This document shows positions 3,582 through 41,379 of a stretch of 49,328 bases of DNA, in pieces. The translations under genes and the position numbers were made by a program. Each line of letters begins with the position of its first letter. The first letter of the stretch is position 1. This DNA comes from a virus (taxonomy: Duplodnaviria; Heunggongvirae; Uroviricota; Caudoviricetes): positions 1 through 49,328 of IMG/VR virus record IMGVR_UViG_2778261065_000024; one strand, given 5' to 3'. The notes under the pieces are model-generated. The model searched no databases. It saw only the letters and a list, made by a program, of their open reading frames with translations, and had not been told where the DNA came from.

Positions 3582-4091
3582 ATGTTTGATTACAAGATTT
3601 CCAAACATCCGCATTTTGATGAAGCCTGTAGAGCTTTTGCACTACGTCACAATATGGCAAAGCTGGCAGAACGTGCAGGAATGAATGTTCAGACACTGCG
3701 AAACAAACTCAATCCAGAGCAACCGCATCAGCTCACCGCACCAGAAATCTGGTTGCTTACCGATCTGACTGAAGATTCAACGTTGGTAGACGGTTTTCTG
3801 GCACAGATTCATTGTCTGCCATGTGTTCCGATTAATGAGGTGGCAAAAGAGAAACTGCCGCATTACGTCATGAGTGCAACTGCAGAGATCGGGCGTGTTG
3901 CTGCAGGTGCGGTATCTGGCGATGTAAAAACCAGTGCAGGTCGTCGTGATGCTATCAGCAGCATTAACTCTGTAACACGACTGATGGCGCTGGCGGCTGT
4001 TTCATTGCAGGCCCGTTTACAGGCTAATCCTGCGATGGCAAGTGCAGTTGATACTGTAACTGGCCTCGGTGCGTCATTCGGTTTGCTGTGA
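3582..4091 (+). CDS. cII: CII-like lysogeny establishment regulator (186-type)
   Basis: 169 aa, the same length as 186 CII, immediately after the apl-like gene; N-terminal HTH-like region (QTLRNKLNPEQP). Confidence 0.65.
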   Translation: MFDYKISKHPHFDEACRAFALRHNMAKLAERAGMNVQTLRNKLNPEQPHQLTAPEIWLLTDLTEDSTLVDGFLAQIHCLPCVPINEVAKEKLPHYVMSATAEIGRVAAGAVSGDVKTSAGRRDAISSINSVTRLMALAAVSLQARLQANPAMASAVDTVTGLGASFGLL

Positions 4092-4299
4092 GGTGCTTAT
4101 GCTGACGAAAGAACCATCATTTGCATCGCTGCTGGTAAAACAAAGCCCGGCAATGCACTACGGTCACGGCTGGATCATGGGGGAGGATGGTAAACGCTGG
4201 CATCCGTGCCGTTCACAAGATGAATTGCTGGCAGAACTATCTACGAAAAAACGGGGGAACAAATGGCTATTGAAGGCGCTGCGGCGACTGTTCCATTAA
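4069..4299 (+). CDS. hypothetical early protein (76-aa ORF; start uncertain)
   Basis: ORF in the early operon, overlapping neighbours; no recognisable motifs. Confidence 0.35.
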   Translation: MRHSVCCEVLMLTKEPSFASLLVKQSPAMHYGHGWIMGEDGKRWHPCRSQDELLAELSTKKRGNKWLLKALRRLFH

Positions 4300-4604
4300 G
4301 CCCCGGTGAACGCCTGAATGGACTTAACCATATTGCGGAGTTAAGGGCGAAAGTATTTGGCCTGAATATTGAGTCAGAGCTTGAGCGGTTTATTAAAGAT
4401 ATGCGTGATCCACGGGATATCAATAACGAACAAAATAAACGGGCACTGGCTGCTATATTCTTTATGGCAAAAATTCCAGCTGAACGTCATAGCATCAGCA
4501 TTAATGAGCTGACCACTGACGAAAAGCGGGAGTTGATTAAAGCAATGAATCATTTTCGTGCAGTGGTGAGCTTATTTCCCAGACGGCTAACCATGCCGAA
4601 TTAA
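4263..4604 (+). CDS. hypothetical early protein (113 aa)
   Basis: ORF in the early operon between cII and A; start uncertain. Confidence 0.45.
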   Translation: MAIEGAAATVPLSPGERLNGLNHIAELRAKVFGLNIESELERFIKDMRDPRDINNEQNKRALAAIFFMAKIPAERHSISINELTTDEKRELIKAMNHFRAVVSLFPRRLTMPN

Positions 4605-4671
4605 CCAACTAATGAAATTAATGGCGTAAACCCGCCGGGTATCCCTTTATCTAAATTCAGGAGAATTGATT

Positions 4672-4905
4672 ATGCGTAATATTGAAACCCTCACGACTAA
4701 AACCGGACCGGATGATGCAGGGCTTAATATTTTACTGACAGAGGCTCGTCTGGAAGAACGCCGGGCAAGGGCTGAAGCAATGGCAGCTCGCCTTGATAGC
4801 CTGGCGTGTCATATCACATCCCGCCAGCTAAACCACGTCGAAGCAGCAGAACTACTGCGTGTAACTGCTGAAGCAATCCAGAACGAAGCGCAGGAGATCC
4901 ACTAA
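4672..4905 (+). CDS. hypothetical early protein (77 aa)
   Basis: ATG at 4672 preceded by CAGGAG 8 nt upstream; in the early operon. Confidence 0.5.
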   Translation: MRNIETLTTKTGPDDAGLNILLTEARLEERRARAEAMAARLDSLACHITSRQLNHVEAAELLRVTAEAIQNEAQEIH

Positions 4906-5132: not shown

Positions 5133-5986
5133 GCACCATCCTGAAATGGGCGGGAAATAAAACCGCCATTATGTCCGAACTGAAAAAACACCTTCCTGCT
5201 GGCCCGCGACTGGTTGAACCTTTCGCGGGTTCCTGTGCTGTGATGATGGAGACGGATTACCCCAGCTATCTGGTTGCGGATATTAATCCTGATTTAATCA
5301 ACCTCTATAAAAAGGTTGCCGCTGATTGTGAATCGTTTATATCTCGCGCCAGAGTTTTATTTGAGATCGCAAACAGGGAGGTGGCTTATTACAACATAAG
5401 GCAGGAGTTTAATTACTCCACTGAAATTACTGATTTCATGAAAGCGGTATATTTCCTGTATCTCAATCGTCACGGTTACCGTGGTTTATGTCGCTATAAC
5501 AAGAGCGGGCATTTCAACATTCCCTACGGTAATTATAAAAATCCGTATTTCCCTGAAAAAGAAATTCGCGCATTTGCAGAAAAAGCCCAGCGGGCAACGT
5601 TTATCTGCGCCAGCTTTGATGAAACGCTGGCGATGTTGAAGGCGGGGGATGTGGTGTATTGCGATCCGCCGTATGACGGCACGTTTTCCGGTTATCACAC
5701 TGACGGCTTCACTGAAGATGACCAGTATCACCTGGCATCCGTTCTTGAACATCGGTCATCAGAAGGACATCCGGTCATTGTTTCTAACAGTGACACATCC
5801 CTGATCCGTTCGCTGTATCGCAATTTTACTCACCACTACATCAAGGCAAAACGCAACATCGGTGTGGCAGCTGGCGAGGGTAAATCAGCAACAGAAATCA
5901 TTGCTGTTTCCGGGCCGCGCTGCTGGGTGGGATTTGATTATTCGCGTGGCGTGGACAGTTCTGCCGTGTACGGAGTACGTGCATGA
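5129..5986 (+). CDS. dam: DNA adenine methyltransferase (Dam-like, GATC N6-adenine MTase)
   Basis: N-terminal [16 protein letters not shown] (SAM-binding motif) and catalytic DPPY (VYCDPPYDG); overlaps neighbours as in an operon. Confidence 0.85.
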
Positions 5987-8397
5987 GTCATGCCGATATG
6001 AACAACTGCTGCGGCTTTAACGAGGCTACCGCAGCATTCTCATGGAACAGCCCGAAAAAGGCCATTAACCCTTATCTGGACCCGGCGGAAGTTGCGCCGG
6101 TTTCTGCGCTTTCAAACCTGATCACTCTGTACGCTGCCGATAACGAGCAGGAACAACTGCGCCGTGAGGCACTGAGTGATCAGGTCTGGGAGCGTTATTT
6201 CTTTAATGAATCCCGTGATCCTGTCCAGCGCGAAATGGAGCAGGATAAGCTAATTAGCCGGGCAAAGCTGGCGCATGAGCAGCAGCGTTTTAATCCAGAC
6301 ATGGTCATTCTGGCGGATGTCAACGCCCAGCCTTCCCATATCAGCAAGCCGCTGATGCAACGTATTAAATACTTCAGCAACCTGGGCAGGCCAAAGGCTT
6401 ATTCCCGCTATTTGCGTGAGACGATTAAGCCATGCTTGGAACGACTGGAGCATGTACGCGACAGCCAGCTATCTGCATCTTTTCGTTTTATGGCAAGCCA
6501 TGAAGGGCTGGACGGTCTGCTGATCCTGCCTGAAATGAGTCAGGATCAGGTGAAACGCCTGTCCACCCTTGTCGCTGCGCATATGAGCATGTGTCTTGAT
6601 GCCGCTTGTGGTGATTTGTACGCCTCCGATGATGTTAAGCCGGAAGAAATCCGCAAGACATGGGAAAAGGTGGCAGCAGAAACCCTGCGACTGGATGTCA
6701 TACCGCCTGCGTTTGAGCAACTCCGCCGGAAAAGAAACCGCCGCAAACCTGTGCCCTATGAACTCATTCCGGGTTCGCTGGCGCGTATGCTGTGCGCCGA
6801 CTGGTGGTATCGGAAATTATGGAAGATGCGTTGCGAATGGCGGGAAGAGCAGTTGCGTGCTGTCTGTCTGGTCAGCAAAAAAGCATCTCCCTATGTCAGC
6901 TATGAAGCCGTGATGCATAAACGTGAGCAGCGCCGTAAGTCGCTGGAGTTTTTCCGTTCTCATGAACTGGTGAACGAAGACGGCGACACGCTGGACATGG
7001 AGGATGTGGTAAACGCCAGCAGCAGCAACCCTGCGCATCGCCGCAATGAGATGATGGCCTGTGTTAAAGGCCTGGAGCTTATCGCGGAAATACGCGGTGA
7101 CTGCGCCGTTTTCTACACCATCACCTGTCCGTCACGTTTCCATTCCACGCTAAATAACGGCAGGCCCAACCCGACCTGGACAAATGCGACGGTAAGACAA
7201 AGCAGTGATTATCTGGTTGGCATGTTTGCTGCATTTCGTAAGGCGATGCACAAAGCCGGATTGCGCTGGTATGGCGTGCGGGTGGCTGAGCCGCATCATG
7301 ACGGTACAGTTCACTGGCACCTGTTGTGTTTTATGCGCAAAAAAGATCGCCGCGCCATTACTGCTTTGTTGCGTAAGTTTGCCATTCGTGAAGACCGCGA
7401 GGAGCTGGGGAATAACACGGGACCACGCTTTAAGTCTGAGTTGATTAACCCGCGCAAAGGAACGCCGACAAGCTACATCGCGAAATATATCAGTAAGAAC
7501 ATTGACGGGCGTGGTCTGGCTGGCGAGATCAGCAAGGAAACGGGTAAATCCCTGCGTGATAACGCTGAATACGTGAATGCCTGGGCGTCTCTGCATCGTG
7601 TTCAGCAATTCCGCTTCTTTGGCATTCCGGGGCGTCAGGCTTACCGTGAACTGCGATTGCTGGCTGGTCAGGCGGCAAGGCAACAGGGTGACAAAAAAGC
7701 AGGTGCGCCGGTACTGGATAACCCGCGCCTTGATGCAATCCTGGCTGCTGCTGATGCTGGTTGTTTTGCCACCTACATCATGAAGCAGGGCGGCGTACTG
7801 GTTCCCCGTAAATATCACCTCATCAGAACCGCTTATGAAATCAACGAAGAGCCAACCGCCTATGGCGATCACGGTATTCGTATTTATGGCATCTGGTCAC
7901 CCATTGCAGAGGGCAAGATCTGCACTCATGCAGTGAAGTGGAAAATGGTTCGTAAGGCCGTTGACATTCAGGAGGCGGCAGCCGACCAGGGCGCTTGCGC
8001 CCCTTGGACTCGTGGCAATAACTGTCCCCTTGCTGAAAATTTGAACCAACAGGAGAAAGATAAATCAGCTGATGGGGGCCCCAGAACGGACTTTACCCGC
8101 ATGGATGACAAGGAGTTGCACGATTACCTGCACAGTATGAACAAAAAGGGGCGCCGGGAACTGGCTGCAAGGTTACGTCTGGTGAAACCGAAACGGCGTA
8201 GAGACTACAAACAGCGAATTACAGACCATCAACGACAGCAGCTCGTCTATGAACTGAAATCCAGAGGATTTGATGGCAGCGAGAAAGAGGTCGATTTACT
8301 CCTTCGCGGCGGCAGTATTCCGTCAGGAGCAGGCCTGCGTATCTTCTATCGGAACCAGCGTTTGCAGGAAGATGATAAGTGGCGGAACCTGTATTAA
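5983..8397 (+). CDS. A: replication initiation endonuclease gpA (rolling-circle)
   Basis: 804 aa; conserved block shared with the second copy at 41425-44247 ([36 protein letters not shown]); position after the early genes. Confidence 0.9.
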
Positions 8398-8467
8398 TTA
8401 CGCTGGTTAACAATTCGTGCTCTTAATAATACCAGGCATATCAGGCTGATAAGCGTAAAAAAAACGT

Positions 8468-8510
8468 TTTACATCAGTAAGATTATTATATACTGTAAAT
8501 ATAAACAGTG
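8468..8510 (+). promoter_or_regulatory. SOS-regulated promoter: TTTACA -35, TATACT -10, overlapping LexA box TACTGTAAATATAAACAGTG (8491-8510)
   Basis: CTGT-N8-ACAG core (CTGT 8493-8496, ACAG 8505-8508), close to the LexA consensus TACTGTATATATATACAGTA, 40 bp upstream of the 8552 ORF. Confidence 0.6.
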
Positions 8511-8551
8511 GTTATACATACAGCATTGCGTGTGGTGTCATAGGAGGAAAG

Positions 8552-8740
8552 ATGCAGGACTATTTTTTGGAGTCTTTGAAGCTCCAGCGCATTGATTTTT
8601 TTCTTAAGCTTGTAGCGGCTAGTGAGTGTAGTGATGAAGAGAAGGGGCTGGCTCTGCAGTGGGTTTCTGAATTGACTGATGAACTCATGGCAAAAATCAG
8701 AAGCCACGAATACAACCGCTCAATGGATGTCATCAGCTGA
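8552..8740 (+). CDS. small protein (62 aa), possibly a Tum-like antirepressor N-terminal module
   Basis: ATG preceded by TAGGAGGAAAG; downstream of the LexA box; followed 10 bp later by a DinI-like gene. Confidence 0.45.
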   Translation: MQDYFLESLKLQRIDFFLKLVAASECSDEEKGLALQWVSELTDELMAKIRSHEYNRSMDVIS

Positions 8741-8750
8741 GGTGACTTTT

Positions 8751-8984
8751 ATGCGCATTGAAATAATGATCGATAAAGAGCAGAAGATTAGCCAGTCTAC
8801 CCTGGACGCCCTTGAATCCGAGCTTTACCGCAATCTGCGCCCCCTGTATCCCAAAACGGTAATCCGTATCCGTAAAGGTAGCTCTAACGGTGTGGAACTG
8901 ACCGGACTGCAACTGGACGAAGAAAGAAAACAAGTGATGAAAATTATGCAGAAGGTGTGGGAAGACGACAGCTGGCTGTATTGA
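8751..8984 (+). CDS. DinI-family protein
   Basis: 77 aa MRIEIMIDK....TVIRIRKGSSNGVELTGLQLDEERKQVMKIMQKVWEDDSW, resembling the DinI family fold; GAGGTG RBS. Confidence 0.75.
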   Translation: MRIEIMIDKEQKISQSTLDALESELYRNLRPLYPKTVIRIRKGSSNGVELTGLQLDEERKQVMKIMQKVWEDDSWLY

Positions 8985-9097
8985 TTTTGTCAATAGACGC
9001 TTGTTTTTACTAATCAAAAAGGGTTACATATGAGTGAGAGGCGATGTCAATCAGATATCGCCTTGTTTTTTGTCAAGAAAAGAATAATAGGCTAAAA

Positions 9098-9775
9098 ATG
9101 AAAATTAATAATGTAGCGTTACCAATATCTCTTGCTGTAATCCTAACTGGTTGCGTGCCACATGCTTCTAACCGAAATATCACTGCTATTGAAGTGGTGA
9201 AGCCTGCTATTGGGCAAAGTGCTACCGCCTACATGGGCGATCCCATTATCACATCTGCTACTGGATTTAAAACGGACGTACTAGAACTTGGTGCGGCTAA
9301 TGGTGCATTGTCTTCTATCGCTGCTGGTACATATTGCAGTGAGGGGAATGGAATTTACCGCAATTATCATAACCCTCAAGCTGTTGCGTTAAAAAATCTC
9401 TATGGGCAAATCGGTAACTATGTTGATTATGTTAGTTACGATGCTGCAAAAAATGAGATATCACCGCCAAATGGTACTTCTTATACTGCATCAGAAATTT
9501 CTATCAAACGTGTTCCTGATGGGCTGTGTCGAGTTAGTAACTCATTGGTTAAGACTATCGAATACAATGGAAATGCAGGCGGTGTAATGAAGTTCACCTA
9601 TCGTGAATTTGCAAACGATATGGCTCGTGCAGCATTTACAACAGATTTTTCTGTAGATTCTAAGGGAAGTGACGTTATCGCTTACAAAGGTGCCAAGTTC
9701 AAAGTGAACAAGGCTGATAACTCGTCTATTTCTTATACAATTATTTCTGGCTTTGACAAGGCTGTCACGTTCTAG
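9098..9775 (+). CDS. putative lipoprotein (cargo gene; function unknown)
   Basis: N-terminus MKINNVALPISLAVILTGC with lipobox LTGC; alternative start at 9044 with GAGAGG RBS; moderately AT-rich; lies between A and the packaging genes. Confidence 0.7.
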   Translation: MKINNVALPISLAVILTGCVPHASNRNITAIEVVKPAIGQSATAYMGDPIITSATGFKTDVLELGAANGALSSIAAGTYCSEGNGIYRNYHNPQAVALKNLYGQIGNYVDYVSYDAAKNEISPPNGTSYTASEISIKRVPDGLCRVSNSLVKTIEYNGNAGGVMKFTYREFANDMARAAFTTDFSVDSKGSDVIAYKGAKFKVNKADNSSISYTIISGFDKAVTF

Positions 9776-9879
9776 GTTTCACGCTTACTGAGTATGTTAC
9801 GATTTTGCACATTCTGCATAAGCGCGCATGTCTATGCTGCATGAGATCGCATGATCGTTTGAGGATCTTTTGTGTTAAG

Positions 9880-9904
9880 GCCCGCCAGTTCTGGCGGGCT
9901 TTTG
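9880..9904 (+). terminator. rho-independent terminator candidate downstream of the lipoprotein gene
   Basis: GCCCGCCAG-tt-CTGGCGGGC hairpin followed by TTTTG. Confidence 0.5.
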
Positions 9905-9948
9905 CGTAGATCATGCAGGTGCATGAAAACCACTACATAAAGCGGGCA

Positions 9949-9967
9949 GGCGTGGCGGGGATACGAG
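9949..9967 (+). other. candidate cos (cohesive end) site of the 186-like prophage
   Basis: GGCGTGGCGGGGATACGAG resembles the P2 cos cohesive end GGCGAGGCGGGGAAAGCAC as I recall it; correct strand relative to Q; the recalled sequence is not verified. Confidence 0.3.
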
Positions 9968-10077
9968 CGCGCGCTCATGGTTGAATTAATGAAATTATGG
10001 TGTTAAATAGGCTAGCTTTTTAAGTCGTGAATATTCAATTTTTCAACTCATTTTTTTCATAGGGAGGAGTAATTGAC

Positions 10078-10776
10078 ATGGTTATGTTAGTGGATGACTG
10101 TCCACGATGTGGATCACAAAAAATAGCGTTTGATGTTAATGGGCTGAATTGCACTAGGGTTTACAATGCATTGGGCGGGGGTAAAACATACGAGTACGAG
10201 GTCTATTGTGTTTGCCGAGAGTGTCATAAAACGACAATGTTTCTTTGCAGACCTTTAACGAAAAATAAAACTTTAGATGGCTATAATTGGGAAAGTGGAA
10301 TATTCGGCTTAAAGGAAGTTGCAGAGGTTGTTAGGCCTATATCACCGGCAGACTTAGCAGTAGAGGAGCCACCAGAGTTCTTACCTGAGCATATCAATAG
10401 TGCATATGAGGAAGGGGCGAAATGTTTGGCTATAGGTTGTTATAATGCAGCAGCAACCATGTTTAGGCTTTGCCTTGATTATGCCACAAAAGGACTTCTT
10501 CCTGATGGGGAGCAAGGGCCTGCGCAAAAAATAAGGAGAAGCCTAGGGTTAAGAATGGAGTGGTTATTTGATAATCATCTACTGCCTGAAGCTTTAAGGG
10601 AACTAGCTGAATGCGTTAAAGATGACGGAAATGATGGAGCGCATGAAGGTATTTTGGATAAAGCTGCTGCTGAGGATCTTGAAGATTTTACCTATCTTTT
10701 TTTAGAACGGCTTTACACTGAACCTCAACGCCTTATCGAAGCCAAGACAAGGCGTGAACAAAGAAGAAACAAATAA
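10078..10776 (+). CDS. zinc-ribbon protein with DUF4145-like C-terminal domain (cargo gene, candidate defence)
   Basis: 232 aa; strong RBS AGGGAGGAG; N-terminal CPRCG...CVCRECH (C4 zinc ribbon); C-terminal VKDDGNDGAHEG resembles the GN..AH signature I associate with DUF4145; sits between candidate cos and the Q stop. Confidence 0.75.
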   Translation: MVMLVDDCPRCGSQKIAFDVNGLNCTRVYNALGGGKTYEYEVYCVCRECHKTTMFLCRPLTKNKTLDGYNWESGIFGLKEVAEVVRPISPADLAVEEPPEFLPEHINSAYEEGAKCLAIGCYNAAATMFRLCLDYATKGLLPDGEQGPAQKIRRSLGLRMEWLFDNHLLPEALRELAECVKDDGNDGAHEGILDKAAAEDLEDFTYLFLERLYTEPQRLIEAKTRREQRRNK

Positions 10777-10784
10777 GTTCGGAA

Positions 10785-11822
10785 TTATTCTTCTGAAAGA
10801 ATATAGGGCGTAAATTTAATCACTTCTTCGCCCAGCCAGTCGTTCAGCTCTTGTAGCCTTTTTTGCAAGGGAGTTAATTCATTACGTACAAATACGCGAC
10901 TGGCCTTCTCCACATCCCCAAACCCTCCAACATTATTAGGCATAATCCCCATCATTTGCGGCGGCACGCGGTGCGCAGCCATCATGTCGTCGCGGCTGAC
11001 ATTTTTGATATTCAAAAACTCATCCTTCGCCGCGACTTCTGACAATGGGATGATCTGAAGCCCGTCTTTTTTGCCGTTAGGCGAGTACATAAACAGGTTG
11101 CGGAAGTTGCCTGGACCTTTGGCGCTTTTCATCGCATTGCGGAGGTTGTTCACATCCTCCTGGTTTTGCGCGGCATCGGTCATGTACATGATAAAGCCCG
11201 CATGACTGCCGTTAATGTAATACTTGCGACGGAACAGCGTGGCGGACTCGTTGAGCAGGGCTGACGGAATGGCAGAAAGATAACCGGGCAGGCCGTAGAT
11301 CTCCTGATTAATATCCGGTTCCATCAGATGAAAAATGCTGCCTTTCGTGAACTGATACGGCTGGGTTGTCATACCGTATTGCACAAACCAGTAGGTATCC
11401 AGGTCTAACCCGCGTCGGGTGTATTTTGCCAGTGCAGGCTCAAGGGCGATAACTTCACCGAAGCGGTTCGTGCGTTTCTCCAGGTAGGCGTTACCAAAAA
11501 CCAGATAGTCCTGCACAAAACGCGAAAAAGCCTGCTGGCTGAGCAGCGGGTGAGGGATGTAGGTGCTGGTCAGAATGTTGCACTTTACTGCAATCGGGGA
11601 ACTATGATGCACGGCAGCGCGGAAGGTGCGCGCCAGTCCGTCAAAGCTGACGGGCGGCTCATACCAGCGGTCCATCTGTACGCATTCCACATAATCCAGC
11701 AGTTCTCGGCGGTCCAGAACAGGAACGGGATCGCCGAAGCTGAATGCTTCGGCTGTAGTTTGACTTTTAAGCTGGATCTGTTTCGTCGCCGCAGCGCGGT
11801 TCTTCTTACTCTTTCCCATCAA
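10785..11822 (-). CDS. Q: portal protein gpQ
   Basis: 345 aa; P2 Q-like length and position; paralogous to the 36740-37786 copy (HRVPPQMMG, GDVEKA). Confidence 0.9.
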   Translation of the reverse strand: MMGKSKKNRAAATKQIQLKSQTTAEAFSFGDPVPVLDRRELLDYVECVQMDRWYEPPVSFDGLARTFRAAVHHSSPIAVKCNILTSTYIPHPLLSQQAFSRFVQDYLVFGNAYLEKRTNRFGEVIALEPALAKYTRRGLDLDTYWFVQYGMTTQPYQFTKGSIFHLMEPDINQEIYGLPGYLSAIPSALLNESATLFRRKYYINGSHAGFIMYMTDAAQNQEDVNNLRNAMKSAKGPGNFRNLFMYSPNGKKDGLQIIPLSEVAAKDEFLNIKNVSRDDMMAAHRVPPQMMGIMPNNVGGFGDVEKASRVFVRNELTPLQKRLQELNDWLGEEVIKFTPYILSEE

Positions 11823-13585
11823 AAAATCTCCACAATATTGCTGGTATTGGCGGATTCGCCCTGCAGCGGTTCGTTAAACAGTGCGTGCATCGTTGCCCAG
11901 GCCAGATCGGCGTGGCTGGCTTCTTCGCTGCGGCTGGCTTCATAGGTCGGGCGGTTGCCACTGGCGGTGGTGGCGCGACGGATTGCCATAAAGGACTGCG
12001 CTATGTCGGTGTGTCCGGCGTCAAACTCCAGACGGCGGTGGCTGATAATGTCGTAGGCCTTGAGTACCAGGGCGTTTTTAACGTTGGGGTTGTAGACAAA
12101 CTCCCGGACGGCAGGAAAAAACGCTTTCACGTTCTCGTAAACCCCGTGACCAACGCCGGTTGAGTCGATACCGATATAGGTCACGTTGTACTGTTCGGTC
12201 AGTTTTTTGATGGCGTCAGCCTGGGCGCGGAAGTCCATTCCGCGCCACTGGTGACGCTCAAGAATGCGGAACTTACCGCCCGGCACGGCTGGCGGCGCCA
12301 CCACCACGCATCCGGCGCTGTCGCCGTTCTGCGTACCTTTCGCCGGGTCATATCCGATCCACACTTCGCGCCAGCCAAACGGGCGCAGGGCCAGTGCATG
12401 AAAGTCGGTCCAGACTTCCCAACTGTCCACCATGCACGCCTGCAGCTCGCTGAGCGGGAACACGGACGCGAGATCGTCCACGAACTCGCACATCAGCAGG
12501 TTCTGGTATTCGTCCGGGCTGTACTCCATGCGCAACTGGTCAAGGTCGAACAGGTTACAGCCGCCGCGCACCGCATCTTCCACGGTGACTATCTGGCGGT
12601 ACTGCCCGTCTGCGCACAGCAGGCCGGGGGCCAGATTGCTGTGGGACAGGTCGATGTCCACCTTATCGGCTTTGTTGCGCCCTCGGTTGAACAGCGCACC
12701 GGACCAGAACGGATAAGCACTGTGTGTCAGGCTGGATGGCGTGGAAAAATAGGTTTGTCGCCATTTTTTGTGAATAGCCATACCGGAAGCCACTTTGCGC
12801 AGCTCCTGGAATTTCGGTATCCAGAAATATTCATCCAGATACAGGTTGCCGTGGTAACTCTGGGCCGTGCGGGCATTGGTGCCGAGGAAGTAAAGCGTGG
12901 CCCCGTTAGGAAGCACCATCGGATCGCCTTTCAGCTCCACCTCGACTTCTTTGGCGAAGTCGATGATGTACTGCTTAAAGACGTGGGCCTGTGCCTTACT
13001 GGCGGAAAGGAAAATCTGGTTACGTCCGGTCAGCAGGGCGTCAATCAGGGCTTCACGGGCAAAGTAAAAGGTCGCGCCGATCTGGCGAGACTTCAGCAGG
13101 TTGCGGATGCGATTGGTTTTTCCGGCTTCCCACCAGTGGCGCTGGTAGTTGAACATGGAGGAATGGAAGATTTCTTCCAGCTTCTCAATCTGTTCATCGG
13201 TGAAAACATTCTTTTCCGGCTGACGGCGCGGCCCTTTGTTGCGGTTGGCGACGTTAGGGTTTAAGTCGGCTTCGTTGCCGCCATTGTTAAACTTGCCGAT
13301 CCGCGCGTGGCGCTCCGACTGGCGCGCCAGCAGGTCAATTTCTTTGAAATCTTTCCCTTCTTTGTGCTCCTTCATAATGAGCTGGCAGTAGCGGGCGGCG
13401 GTGGTGAGCTGCATCTGATCCAGCGGCCCATAGTCACCCCACTTGTCGCGTTTTTTCCAGCTGTGAACGGTTGCAACTTTCTCGCCCAGCATTTCAGCAA
13501 TGCGGGCTACGCGGTATCCCTGAAAGTACAGCAGCATGGCCTGCCGACGGGGATCGAGATCTGCGGGTGTCAGTGTGGTGTTCAT
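11819..13585 (-). CDS. P: terminase large (ATPase) subunit gpP
   Basis: 588 aa; paralogous to 34989-36740; conserved LKSRQIGATFYFA block; overlaps the Q start. Confidence 0.9.
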   Translation of the reverse strand: MNTTLTPADLDPRRQAMLLYFQGYRVARIAEMLGEKVATVHSWKKRDKWGDYGPLDQMQLTTAARYCQLIMKEHKEGKDFKEIDLLARQSERHARIGKFNNGGNEADLNPNVANRNKGPRRQPEKNVFTDEQIEKLEEIFHSSMFNYQRHWWEAGKTNRIRNLLKSRQIGATFYFAREALIDALLTGRNQIFLSASKAQAHVFKQYIIDFAKEVEVELKGDPMVLPNGATLYFLGTNARTAQSYHGNLYLDEYFWIPKFQELRKVASGMAIHKKWRQTYFSTPSSLTHSAYPFWSGALFNRGRNKADKVDIDLSHSNLAPGLLCADGQYRQIVTVEDAVRGGCNLFDLDQLRMEYSPDEYQNLLMCEFVDDLASVFPLSELQACMVDSWEVWTDFHALALRPFGWREVWIGYDPAKGTQNGDSAGCVVVAPPAVPGGKFRILERHQWRGMDFRAQADAIKKLTEQYNVTYIGIDSTGVGHGVYENVKAFFPAVREFVYNPNVKNALVLKAYDIISHRRLEFDAGHTDIAQSFMAIRRATTASGNRPTYEASRSEEASHADLAWATMHALFNEPLQGESANTSNIVEIF

Positions 13586-34988: not shown

Positions 34989-36740
34989 ATGATTCAGGAC
35001 GCTTTTGTGCGCCAGCGTGCGCGGCAACTTTACTGGCAGGGTTATCCGCCCGCAGAAATATCACGTCTGATGGGAATAAACCCGAACACGATTTATGCGT
35101 GGAAAAAACGCGACCAGTGGGATGAAACGCCACCCGTGCAGCGTGTCACGCAGTCCATCGATGCGCGCCTCATCCAGCTTACTGAAAAACAGAATAAAAC
35201 AGGCGGTGACTTTAAGGAAATAGACCTGCTGACCCGGCAGCTTAAAAAGCTGCATGATGGCCAGCCGGATGTGATGGCCGCAGGAAAGAAAGGCCGGGCG
35301 AAAAAACTCAAAAATCATTTCACGCCGGAACAGATTGCCGCACTGCGGGAAAAAATCATCAGCAGGCTGGAGTGGCATCAGCGGGGCTGGTTTGACTCCC
35401 TGACCCTTTGCAGGGAAGCCGGGATACGTAACAGGATGATCCTGAAATCCCGACAGATTGGGGCGACCTGGTATTTTGCACAGGAAGCTCTGCTGATGGC
35501 GTTGCGTGACGATGTGGCGCAACCTTACCAGCGTAACCAGATTTTTTTGTCTGCGTCGCGTCGTCAGGCGTTCCAGTTTAAAAGCATTATTCAGAAGGCC
35601 GCGGCTGAAGTTGATGTGGAGCTGAAAGGGGGCGATAAAATCATCCTCTCCAACGGCGCAGAGCTGCATTTTCTCGGCACTTCTGCTGCGTCGGCACAGT
35701 CCTATACGGGCAATTTTTATTTTGATGAATTTTTCTGGGTCAGTCGCTTTGCTGAACTGCGCAAGGTGGCTGGCGCTATGGCAACCCTCAGCGGACTGCG
35801 GCGCACCTACTTCTCCACGCCATCCACCGAAACGCACGAGGCATACGCCTACTGGAACGGCGACCGCTGGAACGAGAAAAAGGCCTCGCATAAACGCCAG
35901 CGTTTTTCTGTGGACTGGAAAACGCTGCATAACGGGCTTATCTGCCCTGACCGGACGTGGCGGCAAATTGTTACGCTGGAAGATGTGGTTAATCACGGCT
36001 GGAAACACACCGATATTGACGAAATCCGTGATGAAAACACCGAAGACGAGTTCCTCAATCTCTATATGTGTGAGTTTGTTCGCGAAGGGGAATCGGCATT
36101 TAACCTGAATATCCTGATTGGCTGCGGTGTTGACGGATACGACGACTGGAAAGACTGGAAACCTTTTGCTCCCCGCCCGATGGGGAATCGTCCGGTATGG
36201 ATTGGGTATGACGCAAACGGCAGCAGTGGCAACGGCGACAGCGGCGCTGTGTCCGTGGTGGTTCCTCCGGCTGTTCCTGGTGGCCGTTTTCGAACGGTGG
36301 AGACGCGACGCGTTCAGGGGCTGGAGTTTGAAGAACAGGCCAGAGTCATTGAAGAGTTCACGTGTCGCTACAACGTGGAACACATCGGCATTGATGTGAC
36401 GGGCGGGAACGGGGAGGCTGTTTATCAGATAGTGAAGCGGTTTTTCCCTGCTGCTATTCCGTACACCTTCACGCTGTCATCCAAACGGTCGCTGGTACTG
36501 AAAATGCTGCAAATAATGCGTGCCGGACGGTGGGAATACGATCGCGCCGAACGCGAGCTGGTCGCGGCCTTTAACGCCGTGCGTAAGGTGAAAACACCGG
36601 GCGGCTTTATCACTTACGAAACGGACCGCGCGAGGGGGATCAGCCACGGCGACCTTGCGTGGGCAACCATGCTTGCTGTCATTAACGAACCGATTGGCGG
36701 CGAAGGAGAAAACGAGCGTTTCACGGTTATGGAGTTCTGA
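34989..36740 (+). CDS. P: terminase large (ATPase) subunit gpP (second segment)
   Basis: 583 aa; paralogue of 11819-13585. Confidence 0.9.
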   Translation: MIQDAFVRQRARQLYWQGYPPAEISRLMGINPNTIYAWKKRDQWDETPPVQRVTQSIDARLIQLTEKQNKTGGDFKEIDLLTRQLKKLHDGQPDVMAAGKKGRAKKLKNHFTPEQIAALREKIISRLEWHQRGWFDSLTLCREAGIRNRMILKSRQIGATWYFAQEALLMALRDDVAQPYQRNQIFLSASRRQAFQFKSIIQKAAAEVDVELKGGDKIILSNGAELHFLGTSAASAQSYTGNFYFDEFFWVSRFAELRKVAGAMATLSGLRRTYFSTPSTETHEAYAYWNGDRWNEKKASHKRQRFSVDWKTLHNGLICPDRTWRQIVTLEDVVNHGWKHTDIDEIRDENTEDEFLNLYMCEFVREGESAFNLNILIGCGVDGYDDWKDWKPFAPRPMGNRPVWIGYDANGSSGNGDSGAVSVVVPPAVPGGRFRTVETRRVQGLEFEEQARVIEEFTCRYNVEHIGIDVTGGNGEAVYQIVKRFFPAAIPYTFTLSSKRSLVLKMLQIMRAGRWEYDRAERELVAAFNAVRKVKTPGGFITYETDRARGISHGDLAWATMLAVINEPIGGEGENERFTVMEF

Positions 36741-37786
36741 TGAGCAGAAAAAATAAAAAAGCGCGCATGAGTTCACGCATTGATCTCGCTGATGCGCTCA
36801 GGAAAGAATCATCGCTCAGTGCATTCACATTTGATGGTCCTTATCGCCTGACCGGGCATGACCTGCTGGACAATATGTACTGTGCTGATAACGGGCGGTG
36901 GTATGAAACCCCGGTGGACTGGTACGGTCTGGCAAGAGCAGCCCGGCAAACGTCCTGGCATCAGTCTGCGCTTTACTTTAAGCGCAATGTATTACTCGGT
37001 TGCTACATCCCGCACCCGCTGCTTTCCCGGCAGGATTTCTCGGCGCTGGCGCTGGACTGGTTTGTGTTCGGTAACGCATTCCTTGAGCTTCGAAGCAATA
37101 TGCTCGGCGAACCGCTTAAATTACGGCACGCACTGGCGAAATACATGCGACGCGGAAGCGATCTTGAATCATGGTGGTATGTGCAGGATGGCAAGGACGC
37201 GTTCCAGTTTCGCCCTGGCAAAGTGTGCCACCTGATGAATCCTGACATTAGCCAGGAAATCTACGGCATGCCGGAATATCTCGGCGCATTACTCTCGGCC
37301 AGCCTGTCTCATTCGGCGGACATGTTCAGAAAACTGTATTACGACAACGGATCCCACGCCGGGTGCATCATCTACATCGGTGCAGCGCAGGTAAACCGCG
37401 AAAGCATGGACTCCCTGAAAGAAACGTTACAGGGTGCGCGCGGTGGTGGCGCGTTTAAAAACGTGCTCATCCATGCGCCCAACGGGGGCAAAGAGGGGGT
37501 GCAAATTTTGCCGTTCCAGCAGATCACCGCAAAGGATGAGTTCATGAATGTTAAGGCGGCATCCCGTGATGATGTGCTGGCTGCGCACCGCGTTCCGCCG
37601 CAACTGATGGGGGCGATGCCGGGCGAAAAAAGTGCGTTTGGTGATGTGGAGAAGGCCGCGCGGGTTTACGCAATTAACGAGCTGATGCCCGTCATGGAGG
37701 CCATGAAGCACATCAATGACTGGCTTGGCGAAGAGGTGATCCGCTTTAACCCTTACGCACTGTTAGACACCCAGCCCACATCCTGA
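36740..37786 (+). CDS. Q: portal protein gpQ (second segment)
   Basis: 348 aa; paralogue of 10785-11822. Confidence 0.9.
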   Translation: MSRKNKKARMSSRIDLADALRKESSLSAFTFDGPYRLTGHDLLDNMYCADNGRWYETPVDWYGLARAARQTSWHQSALYFKRNVLLGCYIPHPLLSRQDFSALALDWFVFGNAFLELRSNMLGEPLKLRHALAKYMRRGSDLESWWYVQDGKDAFQFRPGKVCHLMNPDISQEIYGMPEYLGALLSASLSHSADMFRKLYYDNGSHAGCIIYIGAAQVNRESMDSLKETLQGARGGGAFKNVLIHAPNGGKEGVQILPFQQITAKDEFMNVKAASRDDVLAAHRVPPQLMGAMPGEKSAFGDVEKAARVYAINELMPVMEAMKHINDWLGEEVIRFNPYALLDTQPTS

Positions 37787-37803
37787 CGCGCTTCGCTTGT
37801 CTG

Positions 37804-37846
37804 CTGCTTCGCCGGGGCATAAAAAATTTATGCCCCGGCGAAGCAG
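37804..37846. terminator. perfect 20-bp inverted repeat with 3-nt spacer downstream of Q (terminator-like or structural site)
   Basis: CTGCTTCGCCGGGGCATAAA-aaa-TTTATGCCCCGGCGAAGCAG. Confidence 0.5.
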
Positions 37847-38097
37847 CTCCTGTATCAGTCAGATAATTTCACGACGCTTTCCTGCTGATTGCCATCATCG
37901 ACAGTCAGACTCTTACGCAATTCCACCGCGTTGACTGCATGTTTTCGCCGTCTCAGTGCGATTTTGACGGCCTTACCTTTCACCCCATCAAATCAAAAGC
38001 CCTCACGTCTTTTTCACGCTCAGCGTGAGAAATACAGCCATTCTGTTGTATCTCTGCGACATCGTTCAGGGAATGCTATTTACCCCCTGAAACGCGG

Positions 38098-38121
38098 GCT
38101 GTTCCCCCGTCACCTGCGCGC
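38098..38121 (-). other. possible cos-like element of the second segment (very tentative)
   Basis: gctgttcccccgtcacctgcgcgc loosely resembles the reverse complement of the candidate cos at 9949-9967. Confidence 0.2.
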
Positions 38122-38210
38122 AGAAAAAACGCGTTTTTTTGTGCACGCACGGATCCCTGACGGATCCAGCCGCCACGCGGGCCGGAAGGGCAAAAAGTCG
38201 TTCAAAAAAA

Positions 38211-38240
38211 TTGTGCAAATTTGTGCACTATTGTGCAACA
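38211..38240. repeat. three tandem 10-bp repeats TTGTGCA(aat/cta/aca)
   Basis: ttgtgcaaat ttgtgcacta ttgtgcaaca, helical-turn periodicity, in the Q / cargo intergenic region. Confidence 0.6.
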
Positions 38241-38263
38241 GAGAAAGAAGGCCAGGAAGAAAG

Positions 38264-38290
38264 AAAAGCCGCCTTTAAAAGGCAGCTTTT
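38264..38290 (-). terminator. rho-independent terminator candidate for the cargo operon
   Basis: Imperfect hairpin AGCCGCCTTT/AAAGGCAGCT followed on the minus strand by a T-rich run; just downstream of the toxin gene stop. Confidence 0.45.
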
Positions 38291-38328
38291 CAGATTAGTA
38301 AGGGATTGATAGATAGTCGTCGCAAAAC

Positions 38329-38709
38329 TCAAAAAGAAGACTGGAACTCTTCTGCTCTGCGCTCAATTTCTGCCATGTAGGATGTACGGGCTAACTCATG
38401 CGCATTGGGTGTCATAATGCTGATTAGCTGATACTTATCTGGATATAAGAAATGGCGGGAGTAAACAAGATAACTGTTTGATTTACGCGAGGCGGCAGGT
38501 AGCTTTGCAGGCCACGGCTGTTCATCAGGTAAACGAATGTGAATCTTAAAAACAAAAGAATCACGAAGACGCCCGCTATCTTCCCACTGCCCTTCGTTGC
38601 CAAAGACTGAGGGTAAAGATCCGCCGTTTTTCCATGACTGCAAAGCATGTGCATATTTACGAGCAACTGCGGGGAGTTCTATGTCATTGTGGACAGAGAC
38701 TTTAATCAT
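38329..38709 (-). CDS. YafO-family toxin (ribosome-dependent mRNA interferase family)
   Basis: 126 aa; blocks GSLPSVFGNEGQWEDS, FKIHI, SYLVYSRHF..YQLISIMTPNAHELAR..MAEIERRAEEF align with E. coli YafO as I recall it. Confidence 0.75.
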   Translation of the reverse strand: MIKVSVHNDIELPAVARKYAHALQSWKNGGSLPSVFGNEGQWEDSGRLRDSFVFKIHIRLPDEQPWPAKLPAASRKSNSYLVYSRHFLYPDKYQLISIMTPNAHELARTSYMAEIERRAEEFQSSF

Positions 38710-38718
38710 GGCCCTGCC

Positions 38719-39312
38719 TTAATGGAACGTTGGATCTTCAAGGCCCAGCTTTTTATGTTCACTGCGGATAAGTGCGTGAACCTGATCGGCGGTAACACCC
38801 AGATCAGCATCTGAAGTTTTCTTCGGCACATGCGTGCTTTCAATGAAGGATAAAATATCTTCAATCGTATAGCGAAGCGTCGCAGCGGAACGAGCAAAAG
38901 CGACAATCTCTTTTCTCAGTTCCGCGTTACTTTCAGGTACGCTTTTCAGCGCAACCTTTGCAGCCTCGACAAAACTTGCACATACCGCAATATGACGGAA
39001 AAGGCTTTCAAACCCTTCCTGAGTCTCTTTTTTCTGATTTTTCAGAATAATAGGGAGCTGCTTTTCTTCCCATTCGATGCGAAGGTTTGCCCTGTGTGTC
39101 TTCATCCTATCAGCCAGGTTAAGCATATAACTGGTGGCCTCATCAATAGGAAGGTATGCCACAGAATCCTTTACGTCCTGGAGGGATAGCGTAGACGTAC
39201 TGTGCCGGGAGATTGATAAGTCATGATGCACAATGCTACTGGCAGGAACAGGGGCGAGAGCCACCGCCAGCGCTGCGGCCATAGATGTTATTTTATTTTT
39301 TTTACTGCTCAT
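38719..39312 (-). CDS. hypothetical protein with signal-peptide-like N-terminus, co-oriented 10 bp upstream of the YafO-family toxin
   Basis: ATG at 39312 after AGGAAAGG; N-terminus MSSKKNKITSMAAALAVALAPVPASS; ORF opens at 39363; unlike YafN. Confidence 0.6.
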   Translation of the reverse strand: MSSKKNKITSMAAALAVALAPVPASSIVHHDLSISRHSTSTLSLQDVKDSVAYLPIDEATSYMLNLADRMKTHRANLRIEWEEKQLPIILKNQKKETQEGFESLFRHIAVCASFVEAAKVALKSVPESNAELRKEIVAFARSAATLRYTIEDILSFIESTHVPKKTSDADLGVTADQVHALIRSEHKKLGLEDPTFH

Positions 39313-39484
39313 AATTGCCTTTCCTGCCAATAATCGTGAACCACTGCCGGAATGATAGCGCAAAAAATCACCCGCTGAAACGAATTATCCTTGCGGCAAA
39401 ACTAGCCCGCGTCAACCTCATACCACGCCAGCGTCGATTGATAGTTTTGTGCCGCCTCGCGTAATGCCTGATAGTCAATCTTGC

Positions 39485-40012
39485 TCACTGGTTGCCTCCT
39501 TTGCGGAGTAGCGCCAGCTCTTCCTGCGCCTGCATCATGCGATTGACCTGAACGCGTGTGCGTCGAACGGCAAAATTAAATTGAAACATGAGCCGGAACA
39601 TTTCTGAGGCTTCCGTGTGAACATCATGGAGAGGTGACAGGCGGTACAGTTCTGCCTCCGTAGCTTGTTGAATCAATGACAGATCAAATTGAAGTGCGGG
39701 TCTGGTACATTTTGCACATCTGGCAGCAAGCTCCGGCATCAGTTTCTTAACGAAGGTGTTTTGCACCGCTTTGTTGAGTTGTGTCTGCATCCAAATCGCA
39801 AATTTCAGCGAACGCATAAATTTGATAGCCTCGGGCAGCGGCAGATAGATCATGCTAGTAGATTTGGGTGGTTGGTGAATCATCTTCACGGATACGCGAT
39901 TTCGCAGCGTTCGGAAAATCGTGTTCCCAACAACAGCTTCTACGGATACAGGACAGGGAGCCAGACCAGCCCGCAGTGCTTCTTTCATTAGCATGTATTC
40001 GTATTTTTTCAT
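39485..40012 (-). CDS. hypothetical protein (175 aa) downstream of parR
   Basis: ORF co-oriented with parMR; no recognisable motifs. Confidence 0.55.
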   Translation of the reverse strand: MKKYEYMLMKEALRAGLAPCPVSVEAVVGNTIFRTLRNRVSVKMIHQPPKSTSMIYLPLPEAIKFMRSLKFAIWMQTQLNKAVQNTFVKKLMPELAARCAKCTRPALQFDLSLIQQATEAELYRLSPLHDVHTEASEMFRLMFQFNFAVRRTRVQVNRMMQAQEELALLRKGGNQ

Positions 40013-40072
40013 TGTGTTTTCCTCGTGCGGGGCGACAGTGCGCCCCGATAAAATTAAAAGCCGTCAAATTCG

Positions 40073-40384
40073 TCATTCAGGAAATAATGCCCGGATATTC
40101 CCTGCCATCTGGCTGGTTATCTGTGCGGTTGGTGCTGTCTGTGACGCGAGGCGTTCTGTCCTGGTTTGTGTCACTGATAACGCCTCATCGTCAGCCCATG
40201 CGGCCAGTCGGTAAGCCTCTGCCGGATTCATTTTCAGAAGTGCCAGCCCGGCCAGAAAAGCCATGCGTTGGACGCTTTTGCGGGCTTCTGGTGTAAGGCT
40301 GTCCAGCCAGGCGCATGCTTCGCCTTCGTTCTTGACGGCGGCGGGCTTCAGATAGAAACTTATCCGTCTGGTTGGTGTCGTCAT
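40073..40384 (-). CDS. parR: ParR/StbB-like centromere-binding partition protein
   Basis: 103 aa; ISFYLKPAAV...LDSLTPEARKSVQRMAFLAGLAL resembles R1 ParR; immediately downstream of parM. Confidence 0.7.
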   Translation of the reverse strand: MTTPTRRISFYLKPAAVKNEGEACAWLDSLTPEARKSVQRMAFLAGLALLKMNPAEAYRLAAWADDEALSVTQTRTERLASQTAPTAQITSQMAGNIRALFPE

Positions 40385-40388
40385 TGGT

Positions 40389-41348
40389 TTACTCCTTGTT
40401 CATTGCGTACAGCCCATTAACCAGAGCAAACTGTGGCACCCCGTCCGCGATGAAAGTCGCATTAACTCCGCAGGCTTCGCGGATAGCGGGTGCCACAATC
40501 TCCGCTCCTCCACCGACAACCATCACCCGCCCGTAACCGGAAAAACCCGCCAGCACGCGGATCACACGTTGTTTCAGTGTTTCTTCCTTTTCACGAATAA
40601 CCGCCACCAGGCTGGCGTAATGCGCGTCATTGTGGATGTGCTGGCGCAGCCAGGCTTCATCATGGCGATGTTCGATAATGGTATTGGCGATGTGGTGACT
40701 GGTACGCATACCGTTAGTGGCCATCACCGACAGTACGGCATCGGCCATCAGGGAAACGCCTACGTGTGGATCGCAAAACACCTGGCTGATACCTGCCAGT
40801 TGTCCCTGAACCTTTGCCACATCCAGCGTGGTTCCGCCTAAATCCACAATCAGCAGGGATTCAAACGGACTCATGTCAGCCAGTGCTTTAAAACCAGCCG
40901 GAATGGATTCAGGCATAACCCGTACGTTACGGATAGTGAATGCTTTTCCGTTCTGGTATTCCACCGGGCGCATGACGTTTGCTTTTTTGCGGTTGATGTT
41001 GGCCATGTCCGGCTGTGCGTTTGTGTCGAAATACTCGCTCAGTGGCAGGGTGACAACCACATCCACCTCCTGTGGTGTGATGCCTGATTTGACCAGCGCG
41101 TGATGAATGGCAATGACATTCACATCGCTGTACTGGTATTGCGTGTCGGTCGTCTGGACAAAGCGATCGCTGACCGGATCAAAACCATAGCGCACGCCAT
41201 CAAGCATGTAGTTCGCGGGCTGCGTGCCACCGAACGGCGCAGACCATTCCGACTTGAAGCTGTTCGGGCTGATAGCGTTGCGGCGTTCGCCGTTCTCAGT
41301 CCATGCCAGCTTGATGTTGGTGGAGCCGTCGTCGATACAAATTTTCAT
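40389..41348 (-). CDS. parM: ParM/StbA actin-like partition ATPase
   Basis: 319 aa; MKICIDDGSTNIKLAW, SPNSFK, YSDVNVIAIHHAL, VMPESIPAGF, LIVDLGGTTLDV, VMVVGGGAEI match ParM/StbA conserved blocks. Confidence 0.9.
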   Translation of the reverse strand: MKICIDDGSTNIKLAWTENGERRNAISPNSFKSEWSAPFGGTQPANYMLDGVRYGFDPVSDRFVQTTDTQYQYSDVNVIAIHHALVKSGITPQEVDVVVTLPLSEYFDTNAQPDMANINRKKANVMRPVEYQNGKAFTIRNVRVMPESIPAGFKALADMSPFESLLIVDLGGTTLDVAKVQGQLAGISQVFCDPHVGVSLMADAVLSVMATNGMRTSHHIANTIIEHRHDEAWLRQHIHNDAHYASLVAVIREKEETLKQRVIRVLAGFSGYGRVMVVGGGAEIVAPAIREACGVNATFIADGVPQFALVNGLYAMNKE

Positions 41349-41379
41349 GTCGCTTTTCCTTATGTTGATTAATTAATCG

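Follow-up and report, generated by a model that had tools for sequence, protein, structure and literature searches.

T5 Llp and the Cor proteins of phages phi80 and N15 are phage-encoded lipoproteins of the outer membrane, where they block the receptor FhuA. T5 Llp is made during lytic growth. In P2, the interval between gpA and gpQ is a hotspot in which old, tin and numerous defence systems are found (Rousset et al. 2022, PMC9122126). In Fels-2 and PSP3, tum is split into an antirepressor gene and a homologue of dinI, which are controlled by LexA (PMC3121763). Induction of DuoHS, a prophage of Escherichia coli HS, needs both tum and a cleavable LexA, and the control of tum by LexA is experimental in this case (PMC12055606). 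Virions of DuoHS use the O9 O-antigen, adsorb to capsule-less lysogens, cause lysis from without and become trapped on lysis debris (PMC13622650).

The stretch of DNA analysed here (the window) comprises 49,328 nucleotides of IMG/VR record IMGVR_UViG_2778261065_000024, and its first half is a P2-like (Peduoviridae) prophage. A lipoprotein gene, here called lpp, and then a cos-like site lie 3′ of a gene of the DinI family in this prophage. The gene is already catalogued, as STM2726 and under phrog_1353, without an assigned function. The identity of lpp, the localisation class of its product and the anatomy of its cassette can, taken jointly, be stated with high confidence. Envelope-level exclusion of incoming phages or DNA is put forward, tentatively, as the most likely role.

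Gene order between gpA and the terminase gene

The features of the region are as follows.

5983–8397, plus strand: gpA
8493–8508, plus strand: LexA (SOS) box, CTGTAAATATAAACAG, 5′ of the tum-like reading frame; exact match to CTGT-N8-ACAG
8552–8740, plus strand: tum-like reading frame, 62 aa, the antirepressor half of a split Tum (phrog_698, E 5.9e-38)
8751–8984, plus strand: DinI-like (TumB-like) gene (Pfam DinI, E 6.6e-23; phrog_189, E 1.5e-29)
8985–9821: variable slot 1, the lipoprotein cassette (0.84 kb), from the dinI stop to the cos block; defined by comparison with lpp-less E. coli P2-like prophages
9038–9074, plus strand: hairpin and U-tract resembling an intrinsic terminator, between dinI and lpp (11-bp stem, dG −16.9 kcal/mol, z −4.0)
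9098–9775, plus strand: lipoprotein coding sequence (lpp), 225 aa; signal peptide residues 1–18, lipobox L16-T-G-C19, Cys codon 9152–9154 (phrog_1353, dN/dS, AlphaFold2)
9822–9975: conserved cos block of P2-like phages, 154 bp (aligned with the KMi025 and BL21 prophages and with P2 cos)
9877–9907, plus strand: GC-rich hairpin followed by UUUUG, a predicted rightward terminator within the cos block (dG −22.3 kcal/mol, z −4.5)
9949–9967, plus strand: equivalent of the 19-nt cohesive end, GGCGTGGCGGGGATACGAG (13 of 19 positions identical to cosL/cosR of P2, NC_001895)
9976–10784: variable slot 2, on the far side of cos, here holding DUF4145
10078–10776, plus strand: DUF4145 gene
10785–11822, minus strand: portal gene Q
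11819–13585, minus strand: terminase gene P

Over 8400–9975, the DNA shares 98% identity with Klebsiella phage 4LV2017, many other Klebsiella P2-like phages and Salmonella Fels-2, and this homology breaks off sharply at 9975. The tum-like reading frame is 97–100% identical among Fels-2-like and DuoHS-like loci. An earlier note on this DNA had described lpp as following a DinI-like gene, and the Pfam match bears this out. It had also called lpp AT-rich and without a counterpart in the second P2-like segment of the window. Correspondingly, lpp has a GC content of 40.7%, compared with 51.7% in the window as a whole, and a tblastn search of the second prophage segment found no lpp counterpart. Between A and Q, that segment instead carries genes for ParM/StbA, StbB and a YafO toxin, together with two unknown ORFs. 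An Rfam search for structured RNA across the region returned no match.

Start codon, allelic variation and selection

An open reading frame from 9044 to 9775 is present on the plus strand of the window. The earlier note had taken all of it as the gene, with a product of about 226 aa; the predicted size was close, but the start lies at 9098. The ATG at 9044 was rejected because it falls within the terminator-like hairpin, at 9038–9064, and because the 18-codon N-terminal extension that it would add is missing or out of frame in the diverged alleles L049, L051 and L053. Furthermore, the RefSeq coding sequence of E. coli HS begins at the second ATG, which is equivalent to 9098. On these three grounds the product has 225 aa and is encoded by 9098–9775.

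Proteins 100% identical to it occur in at least 25 records of Klebsiella phages; STM2726 of Fels-2 and the counterpart in Salmonella RE2010 are 99% identical. At the nucleotide level, the gene is 100% identical to that of WP_000700647.1 in DuoHS. The protein is nearly invariant across phages of Klebsiella, E. coli and Salmonella. Among 50 copies of lpp there are 16 nucleotide alleles, several of which differ from the window allele by five to nine synonymous changes and no non-synonymous change. The dN/dS ratio is 0–0.15 overall and 0.04–0.15 in the more distant alleles, values that point to strong purifying selection. As it is represented by 16 alleles, several with synonymous changes only, lpp is a real gene and not a chance reading frame.

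Lipoprotein signal, sorting and predicted structure

The N-terminus of the protein, MKINNVALPISLAVILTGC, carries the lipobox LTGC at residues 16–19, which agrees with the pattern [LVI][ASTVI][GAS]C. The lipobox cysteine, Cys19 here, is kept in all of 22 close and 52 distant homologues, which confirms the lipobox that had been proposed from the window alone. The residue at position +2 is valine. An aspartate at +2, the signal for Lol avoidance, was sought in these homologues and in the members of alignments A1, A3 and A4, and none was found; sorting to the outer membrane is therefore predicted for Enterobacteriaceae. The lpp product is probably a Lol-sorted lipoprotein anchored in the outer membrane.

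The mature protein has 206 aa. In most family members the mature part contains an even number of cysteines, with two or four besides the lipobox cysteine, as would fit an exported, disulphide-bonded protein. The AlphaFold2 model (pLDDT 80, pTM 0.60) contains 17 β-strands, and residues 1–27 are disordered. From this model, it appears that Cys19 is followed by a tether of about 10 disordered residues and then by an all-β globular part with two conserved cysteines. A Foldseek search of the model against PDB and BFVD returned nothing at E ≤ 1e-3, and sequence and profile searches of the PDB gave no match.

An optional cassette beside a conserved cos block

The boundaries of the two variable slots were taken from lpp-less E. 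coli P2-like prophages that encode an identical DinI protein. Homology between the window and these relatives ends at the dinI stop (8984), resumes at about 9822 and ends again at 9975. In slot 1, KMi025 carries a short spacer only, so that dinI runs almost directly into the cos block, and the BL21 prophage carries a reversed ORF of 111 aa. Because lpp is present or absent among phages that are otherwise collinear, with sharp homology boundaries, it is optional accessory cargo of the gpA-to-cos interval, as the earlier note had proposed. In complete E. coli genomes, lpp occurs in 50 of 5,426 and the cos block in 1,277 of 5,426.

A candidate cos had likewise been placed downstream of the gene, and the alignment of 9949–9967 with the cohesive end of P2 upholds it; the flanks of the P2 cohesive end are conserved as well. 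The cassette had further been said to end in a terminator before cos. There is indeed a hairpin with a U-run, at 9877–9907, but it lies about 100 nt past the lpp stop codon and inside the cos block, and its stem is kept in the lpp-less relatives. By this comparison, the predicted terminator belongs to the cos block and not to the lipoprotein cassette.

Across about 47 lpp-carrying P2-like contigs in IMG/VR, the order gpA-tum-dinI-lpp is constant, and the spacing between lpp and Q differs by more than 3 kb among contigs. The slot-2 cargo of 4LV2017 includes a retron, and Fels-2 and HS have ORFs of 565 aa and 463 aa, respectively, in this slot. As judged from these sequences, lpp is stable cargo in the lineage that carries it, and the hypervariable slot lies across cos. 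A conserved link between lpp and DUF4145, which the earlier note had entertained, did not hold: the two genes occur together in only 2 of the approximately 47 related phage contigs, and the neighbours of lpp homologues elsewhere are unrelated. A two-gene system was rejected on these grounds. The two-slot layout around cos sharpens the parsing of the P2 gpA–gpQ hotspot when defence genes are mined from it.

Proposed transcription of lpp from the tum operon

DuoHS, with its LexA-controlled tum, carries a block 100% identical to that of the window. The hairpin between dinI and lpp is conserved in Fels-2 and in alleles L047 and L049, the last of which shows a compensatory change from C:G to T:A. 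Both a scan and manual reading of the DNA between this hairpin and the lpp start gave no convincing σ70 promoter; a match of the scan at 9070–9099 was rejected as a promoter of lpp itself because it overlaps the start codon. Alleles at 79% identity are without the hairpin and carry the promoter-like sequence TTGATG-17-TATGAT.

In a Salmonella microarray study, STM2726, STM2727 and STM2728 were listed as one operon, and all were upregulated after treatment with the mutagen MX (PMC2225428). The fold changes for the three genes span 14.8 (best p) to 2.6 (worst p) (PMC2225428). Prophage replication may inflate the signal. The spread from 14.8 to 2.6 fits an attenuating terminator. From this operon table and the sequence features, on which the account of lpp expression is based, attenuated read-through from the SOS promoter is suggested as the way in which lpp is transcribed. 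As lpp sits behind the LexA-controlled tum-dinI operon, a context that the earlier note had overlooked, it is more likely a gene of the DNA-damage response or lytic phase than one expressed constitutively in the lysogen.

A large family of phage lipoproteins

The lpp protein matches the unannotated PHROG family phrog_1353 with E 3.1e-105, residues 1–223 aligning with positions 1–230 of the 230-position profile, and homologues from Acinetobacter, Klebsiella, Pantoea and a bioreactor match the same family. Databases name the protein only 'hypothetical protein' or 'Lipoprotein'. Searches with lpp gave no meaningful match in Pfam (none at E ≤ 1) or NCBIfam, no family in PADLOC and only unannotated families in PHROGs; a Pfam scan of 52 diverse family members yielded nothing above noise. 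A spanin was considered and rejected on account of size, and because weak matches to O_Spanin and LysC rest on the signal peptide only. Apart from the MX microarray table, a literature search for STM2726, EcHS_A0921, phrog_1353 and A0A482J845 found no functional report.

When 1.84 billion cluster representatives were searched with a profile, 2,434 clusters, defined at 50% identity, matched at E ≤ 1e-3, of which 1,256 reached E ≤ 1e-10. Among the named members are proteins from Acinetobacter, Moraxella, Providencia, Vibrio, Photobacterium, Pseudoalteromonas and Idiomarina, and the family was found in more than 250 IMG/VR phage contigs. Taxonomic spread was judged from this cluster search and the named members, and not from a profile scan of genome contigs. 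Such a scan, made with alignment A1, found a single Erwinia locus. Nearly all members of the phrog_1353 family are lipoproteins of about 220–240 aa, in which the N-terminal half is variable and the C-terminal domain conserved. The latter contains the motif SFQQTLIYNGK..G..L.F.YREF....AR.AF..D..YDL..S..IGYKGA..EV..A.N..I.Y.V...F.

Homologues at 24–60% identity recur as accessory cargo of unrelated mobile elements. A Klebsiella homologue lies on an island with serine recombinases and putAbiC, homologues in a Citrobacter-like prophage and a Pantoea element adjoin OLD-like nucleases, and a Brenneria homologue lies in an integrative element. In an Idiomarina prophage, the homologue is found between RecT/YqaJ and a CI-like repressor. 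The subfamily in siphophages of the Moraxellaceae type (Acinetobacter and Moraxella) accounts for 208 IMG/VR contigs. In 13 of 16 diverse contigs of these phages, the homologue stands directly upstream of the tape-measure gene and in the same orientation; genes for the tail tube and chaperone precede it, and toxin–antitoxin or antirepressor accessory genes often adjoin it. Conversely, a Providencia prophage has its homologue directly downstream of the tape-measure gene, beside HicAB and Arc/Mnt genes. A bioreactor siphophage carries an antisense homologue between gpK-like and gpJ-like tail genes. Two homologues are apparently chromosomal, with no phage genes nearby.

In all these settings the lpp homologues are solo, with no conserved partner gene, which supports the view that the family comprises extracytoplasmic, membrane-tethered proteins that would be useful on their own to mobile elements. 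The gene orders also support the placement, in two phage lineages, of the family's gene in what appear to be operons of lytic development. Taken alone, lpp would be an ordinary hypothetical prophage gene; the size of the family (about 2,400 clusters), the lack of a Pfam model and of any PDB or BFVD relative raise its interest.

Possible functions of the lipoprotein

Envelope-level exclusion of incoming phages or DNA is considered the most likely role of lpp, although less than an even chance can be given to it. Under this proposal, transcription from the LexA-controlled tum promoter would reach lpp by attenuated read-through of the hairpin terminator, and the protein would be made mainly after DNA damage and at the onset of lytic growth, at a level below that of the tum and dinI products. 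It would bind a component of the host envelope that is conserved in Enterobacteriaceae and is not the phage's own receptor, and this binding would make it harder for other phages or foreign DNA to enter at a time when repressor immunity is lifted. The role would then be superinfection exclusion in the lytic phase or in the lysogen, with a logic like that of T5 Llp or T4 Imm/Sp.

Exclusion is favoured by the company that the family keeps, namely defence and toxin–antitoxin accessory genes and the P2 hotspot with old and tin, and by the predicted timing of expression, when repressor immunity is off. The lpp alleles show no arms-race signature, and so nearly invariant a protein is better explained by a target in the host that is conserved than by an arms race with proteins of phages. 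The same near-invariance also counts against exclusion, as do the family members that look chromosomal and the lack of resemblance to known exclusion or defence proteins in searches of Pfam, NCBIfam, PADLOC, PHROGs, PDB and BFVD and in comparisons with TraT and Bor. Two further points against it are that DuoHS virions still adsorb to capsule-less lysogens with this same gene and that lpp is identical in phages with differing tail-fibre tips.

A rival role is that of an envelope factor that acts in the lytic cycle for the phage itself, without excluding others. Such a factor might tune the integrity of the outer membrane or peptidoglycan, the timing of lysis, vesiculation or the attachment of the capsule; the gain would be an efficient release of progeny, or survival of the induced cell up to the burst. 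This is a rather unlikely account, but it draws on several of the observations above. In P2-like phages lpp shares an SOS-induced operon with the antirepressor, and the position in 13 of 16 Moraxellaceae-type siphophage contigs leads to a late tail operon, where late expression is expected. The extreme conservation fits a conserved envelope target of the host, and lpp-positive phages are concentrated in capsulated hosts, that is, Klebsiella and E. coli HS, the latter with a Klebsiella-like capsule. Yet lpp is optional, and most P2-like phages have a full lysis cassette without it; the protein has no similarity to spanins, holins or endolysins, and family members also occur outside lytic contexts, in integrative elements and chromosomes. 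If the product served the lysogen instead, it could be a conversion factor comparable to lambda Bor or F TraT, giving serum or complement resistance, adhesion or stress tolerance. An outer-membrane lipoprotein encoded by an accessory gene of a temperate phage, similar in size to TraT (243-aa precursor) and spread across the pathogens Klebsiella, Salmonella, Acinetobacter and Moraxella, would suit this role, as would those 79%-identity alleles that have a promoter-like site and no upstream hairpin. Conversion is nevertheless judged improbable: a LexA-repressed promoter followed by a terminator predicts low expression in uninduced lysogens, TraT is not homologous, Bor aligns over the signal peptide only, and no literature linking STM2726 to virulence was found.

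Blocking of a phage's own receptor, by which progeny are saved, has been reported for diverse prophages, and lpp might act similarly, as an Llp/Cor-type mask ('anti-Kronos') that keeps progeny from binding again to induced cells and to debris. Production at induction would fit, and one family member adjoins a gpJ-like receptor-binding gene. However, DuoHS carries the identical gene, yet capsule-less lysogens and lysis debris still trap its virions; the receptor of DuoHS, the O9 O-antigen, is an abundant polysaccharide. Furthermore, lpp is 99–100% identical between Klebsiella phages, Fels-2 and the window, the tail-fibre tips of which are unrelated at the C-terminus: only residues 1–343 of the window gpH are common to Klebsiella and Salmonella phages, and the C-terminal tips are unmatched. 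At minimum, the O-antigen receptor of the phage itself is left unmasked by lpp; own-receptor masking is disfavoured and is given very little weight. The probability left over from exclusion and these three rivals remains for something else.

The exclusion proposal can be extended from lpp to its whole family, in a broader reading that is speculative and probably incorrect. According to it, phrog_1353 would be a structurally orphan class of outer-membrane lipoproteins that provides general lytic-phase exclusion through a new fold. Many unrelated temperate phages of Gammaproteobacteria would switch on a phrog_1353 protein during lytic development. In P2-like phages the SOS antirepressor operon would bring this about, and in Moraxellaceae siphophages the tail operon near the tape-measure gene. 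The conserved C-terminal β domain (YREF...ARxAF...YKGA) would bind a conserved envelope component, and the envelope would be closed to phage DNA or other invaders for as long as repressor immunity is down. A tractable model with an identical copy of lpp is DuoHS in E. coli HS, in which progeny re-adsorption and lysis from without are already being measured, and this copy could allow a function to be assigned to a widespread family of phage envelope proteins.

Comparison with known systems

The lpp gene is a sequence-unrelated addition to the known phage-borne accessory genes for outer-membrane lipoproteins. With T5 Llp and the Cor proteins of phi80 and N15 it shares a phage-encoded lipoprotein product and a presumed site of action at the outer membrane. 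Llp and Cor have about 60–80 aa, compared with 206 aa for mature lpp protein; there is no PHROG or Pfam relationship between them, and lpp does not co-vary with the receptor-binding tip. F TraT, which mediates surface exclusion and serum resistance, and lambda Bor are likewise outer-membrane lipoproteins of mobile elements, and TraT is of similar length. Homology was rejected in both cases: hhalign of the family profile with TraT gave a probability of 12.8%, and with Bor it aligned only the 22-residue signal peptide.

As with old, tin and other cargo of the P2 hotspot, lpp lies in the interval between gpA and gpQ, is optional and is AT-rich. It differs from this cargo in being nearly invariant and in lying on the A-proximal side of cos; the hypervariable defence cargo of the lpp-carrying lineage lies on the Q-proximal side. 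Its product is also not a cytoplasmic nuclease or an abortive-infection protein. The closest known counterparts are STM2726 of Fels-2, WP_000700647.1 of DuoHS and phrog_1353, which represent the same gene at the same position in the order gpA-tum-dinI-lpp-cos-Q. The Fels-2 record differs only in its over-extended start, which gives a protein of 243 aa.

The cos block and its flanking slots

The P2 'gpA–gpQ hotspot' is two variable slots with a conserved cos block between them. In the window's P2-like prophage, the block separates slot 1 (8985–9821), which holds the lipoprotein cassette, from slot 2 (9976–10784).

9822–9975: conserved cos block, 154 bp
9877–9907: terminator hairpin within the cos block, rightward
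9949–9967: cohesive-end equivalent within the cos block
10078–10776 (+): gene for a DUF4145 protein of 232 aa, the slot-2 cargo

The N-terminus of the DUF4145 protein carries a zinc-ribbon-like CxxC...CxxC motif. Its match to phrog_1305 (E 9.5e-53), together with a weak match to PADLOC PD-T7-4 (E 1.2e-6), suggests the gene as a candidate anti-phage gene. It is present in only 2 of the approximately 47 related contigs.

Lipoprotein start codon, alleles and clustering

The Fels-2 counterpart of the lipoprotein gene, STM2726 (3947–4678 in NC_010463), is annotated as 243 aa from an upstream ATG that falls within a terminator hairpin, and this annotation is probably an over-extension. The upstream hairpin is absent from the two loci with 79%-identity lipoprotein alleles (L051 and L053), where a conserved promoter-like site, TTGATG-17-TATGAT, lies in its stead at about 5930–6000. 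This replacement suggests that cassette variants may differ in regulation.

In a 90%-identity clustering of a large protein collection, the window lipoprotein was placed under a 308-aa branched-chain amino-acid transaminase as cluster head, which looks like a clustering artefact. This grouping explains why the homology matches did not include the cluster to which the lipoprotein itself belongs.

The lipoprotein family beside tape-measure genes

In unrelated siphophages, a hotspot of accessory genes adjoins the tape-measure gene, as seen in two loci.

L003 4091–5907: accessory region of Acinetobacter phage PhabP_R1
L164 7001–10287: accessory region of a Providencia prophage

The hotspot contains the phrog_1353 lipoprotein, toxin–antitoxin pairs (DUF4258/XRE and HicAB) and antirepressors. 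The Acinetobacter group also has a conserved 87-aa ORF (phrog_4839), which follows the lipoprotein gene in tight coupling with it.

Tail fibre and second P2-like segment

22221–23642 (+): gpH tail fibre

Residues 1–343 of gpH are 97% identical to their counterparts in Klebsiella phages, which, like Fels-2, do not share the C-terminal receptor-binding region of ~130 aa. The best fuller matches are the E. coli phages Cartapus and pro483. Taken together, these comparisons suggest that the fibre tip has been swapped and that the prophage carrying this gpH has a host range of the E. coli type.

The second P2-like segment (34989–44247) is more divergent, with identities of 42% for gpA, 50% for Q and 45% for P. 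It is without tum, dinI and the lipoprotein gene, and its cos was not found with the P2/186-type pattern. Its A-to-Q interval holds two ORFs of unknown kind and the following genes.

40389–41348 (−): ParM/StbA
40073–40384 (−): StbB
38329–38709 (−): YafO toxin

SOS switch upstream of the lipoprotein gene

8493–8508: perfect LexA box
8552–8984: operon of split tum (a 62-aa antirepressor-like ORF) and dinI

The LexA box, lying upstream of the split tum–dinI operon, forms with it the SOS induction switch of the window prophage. Fels-2, PSP3 and DuoHS, the E. coli HS prophage with an identical lipoprotein gene, have the same kind of switch.
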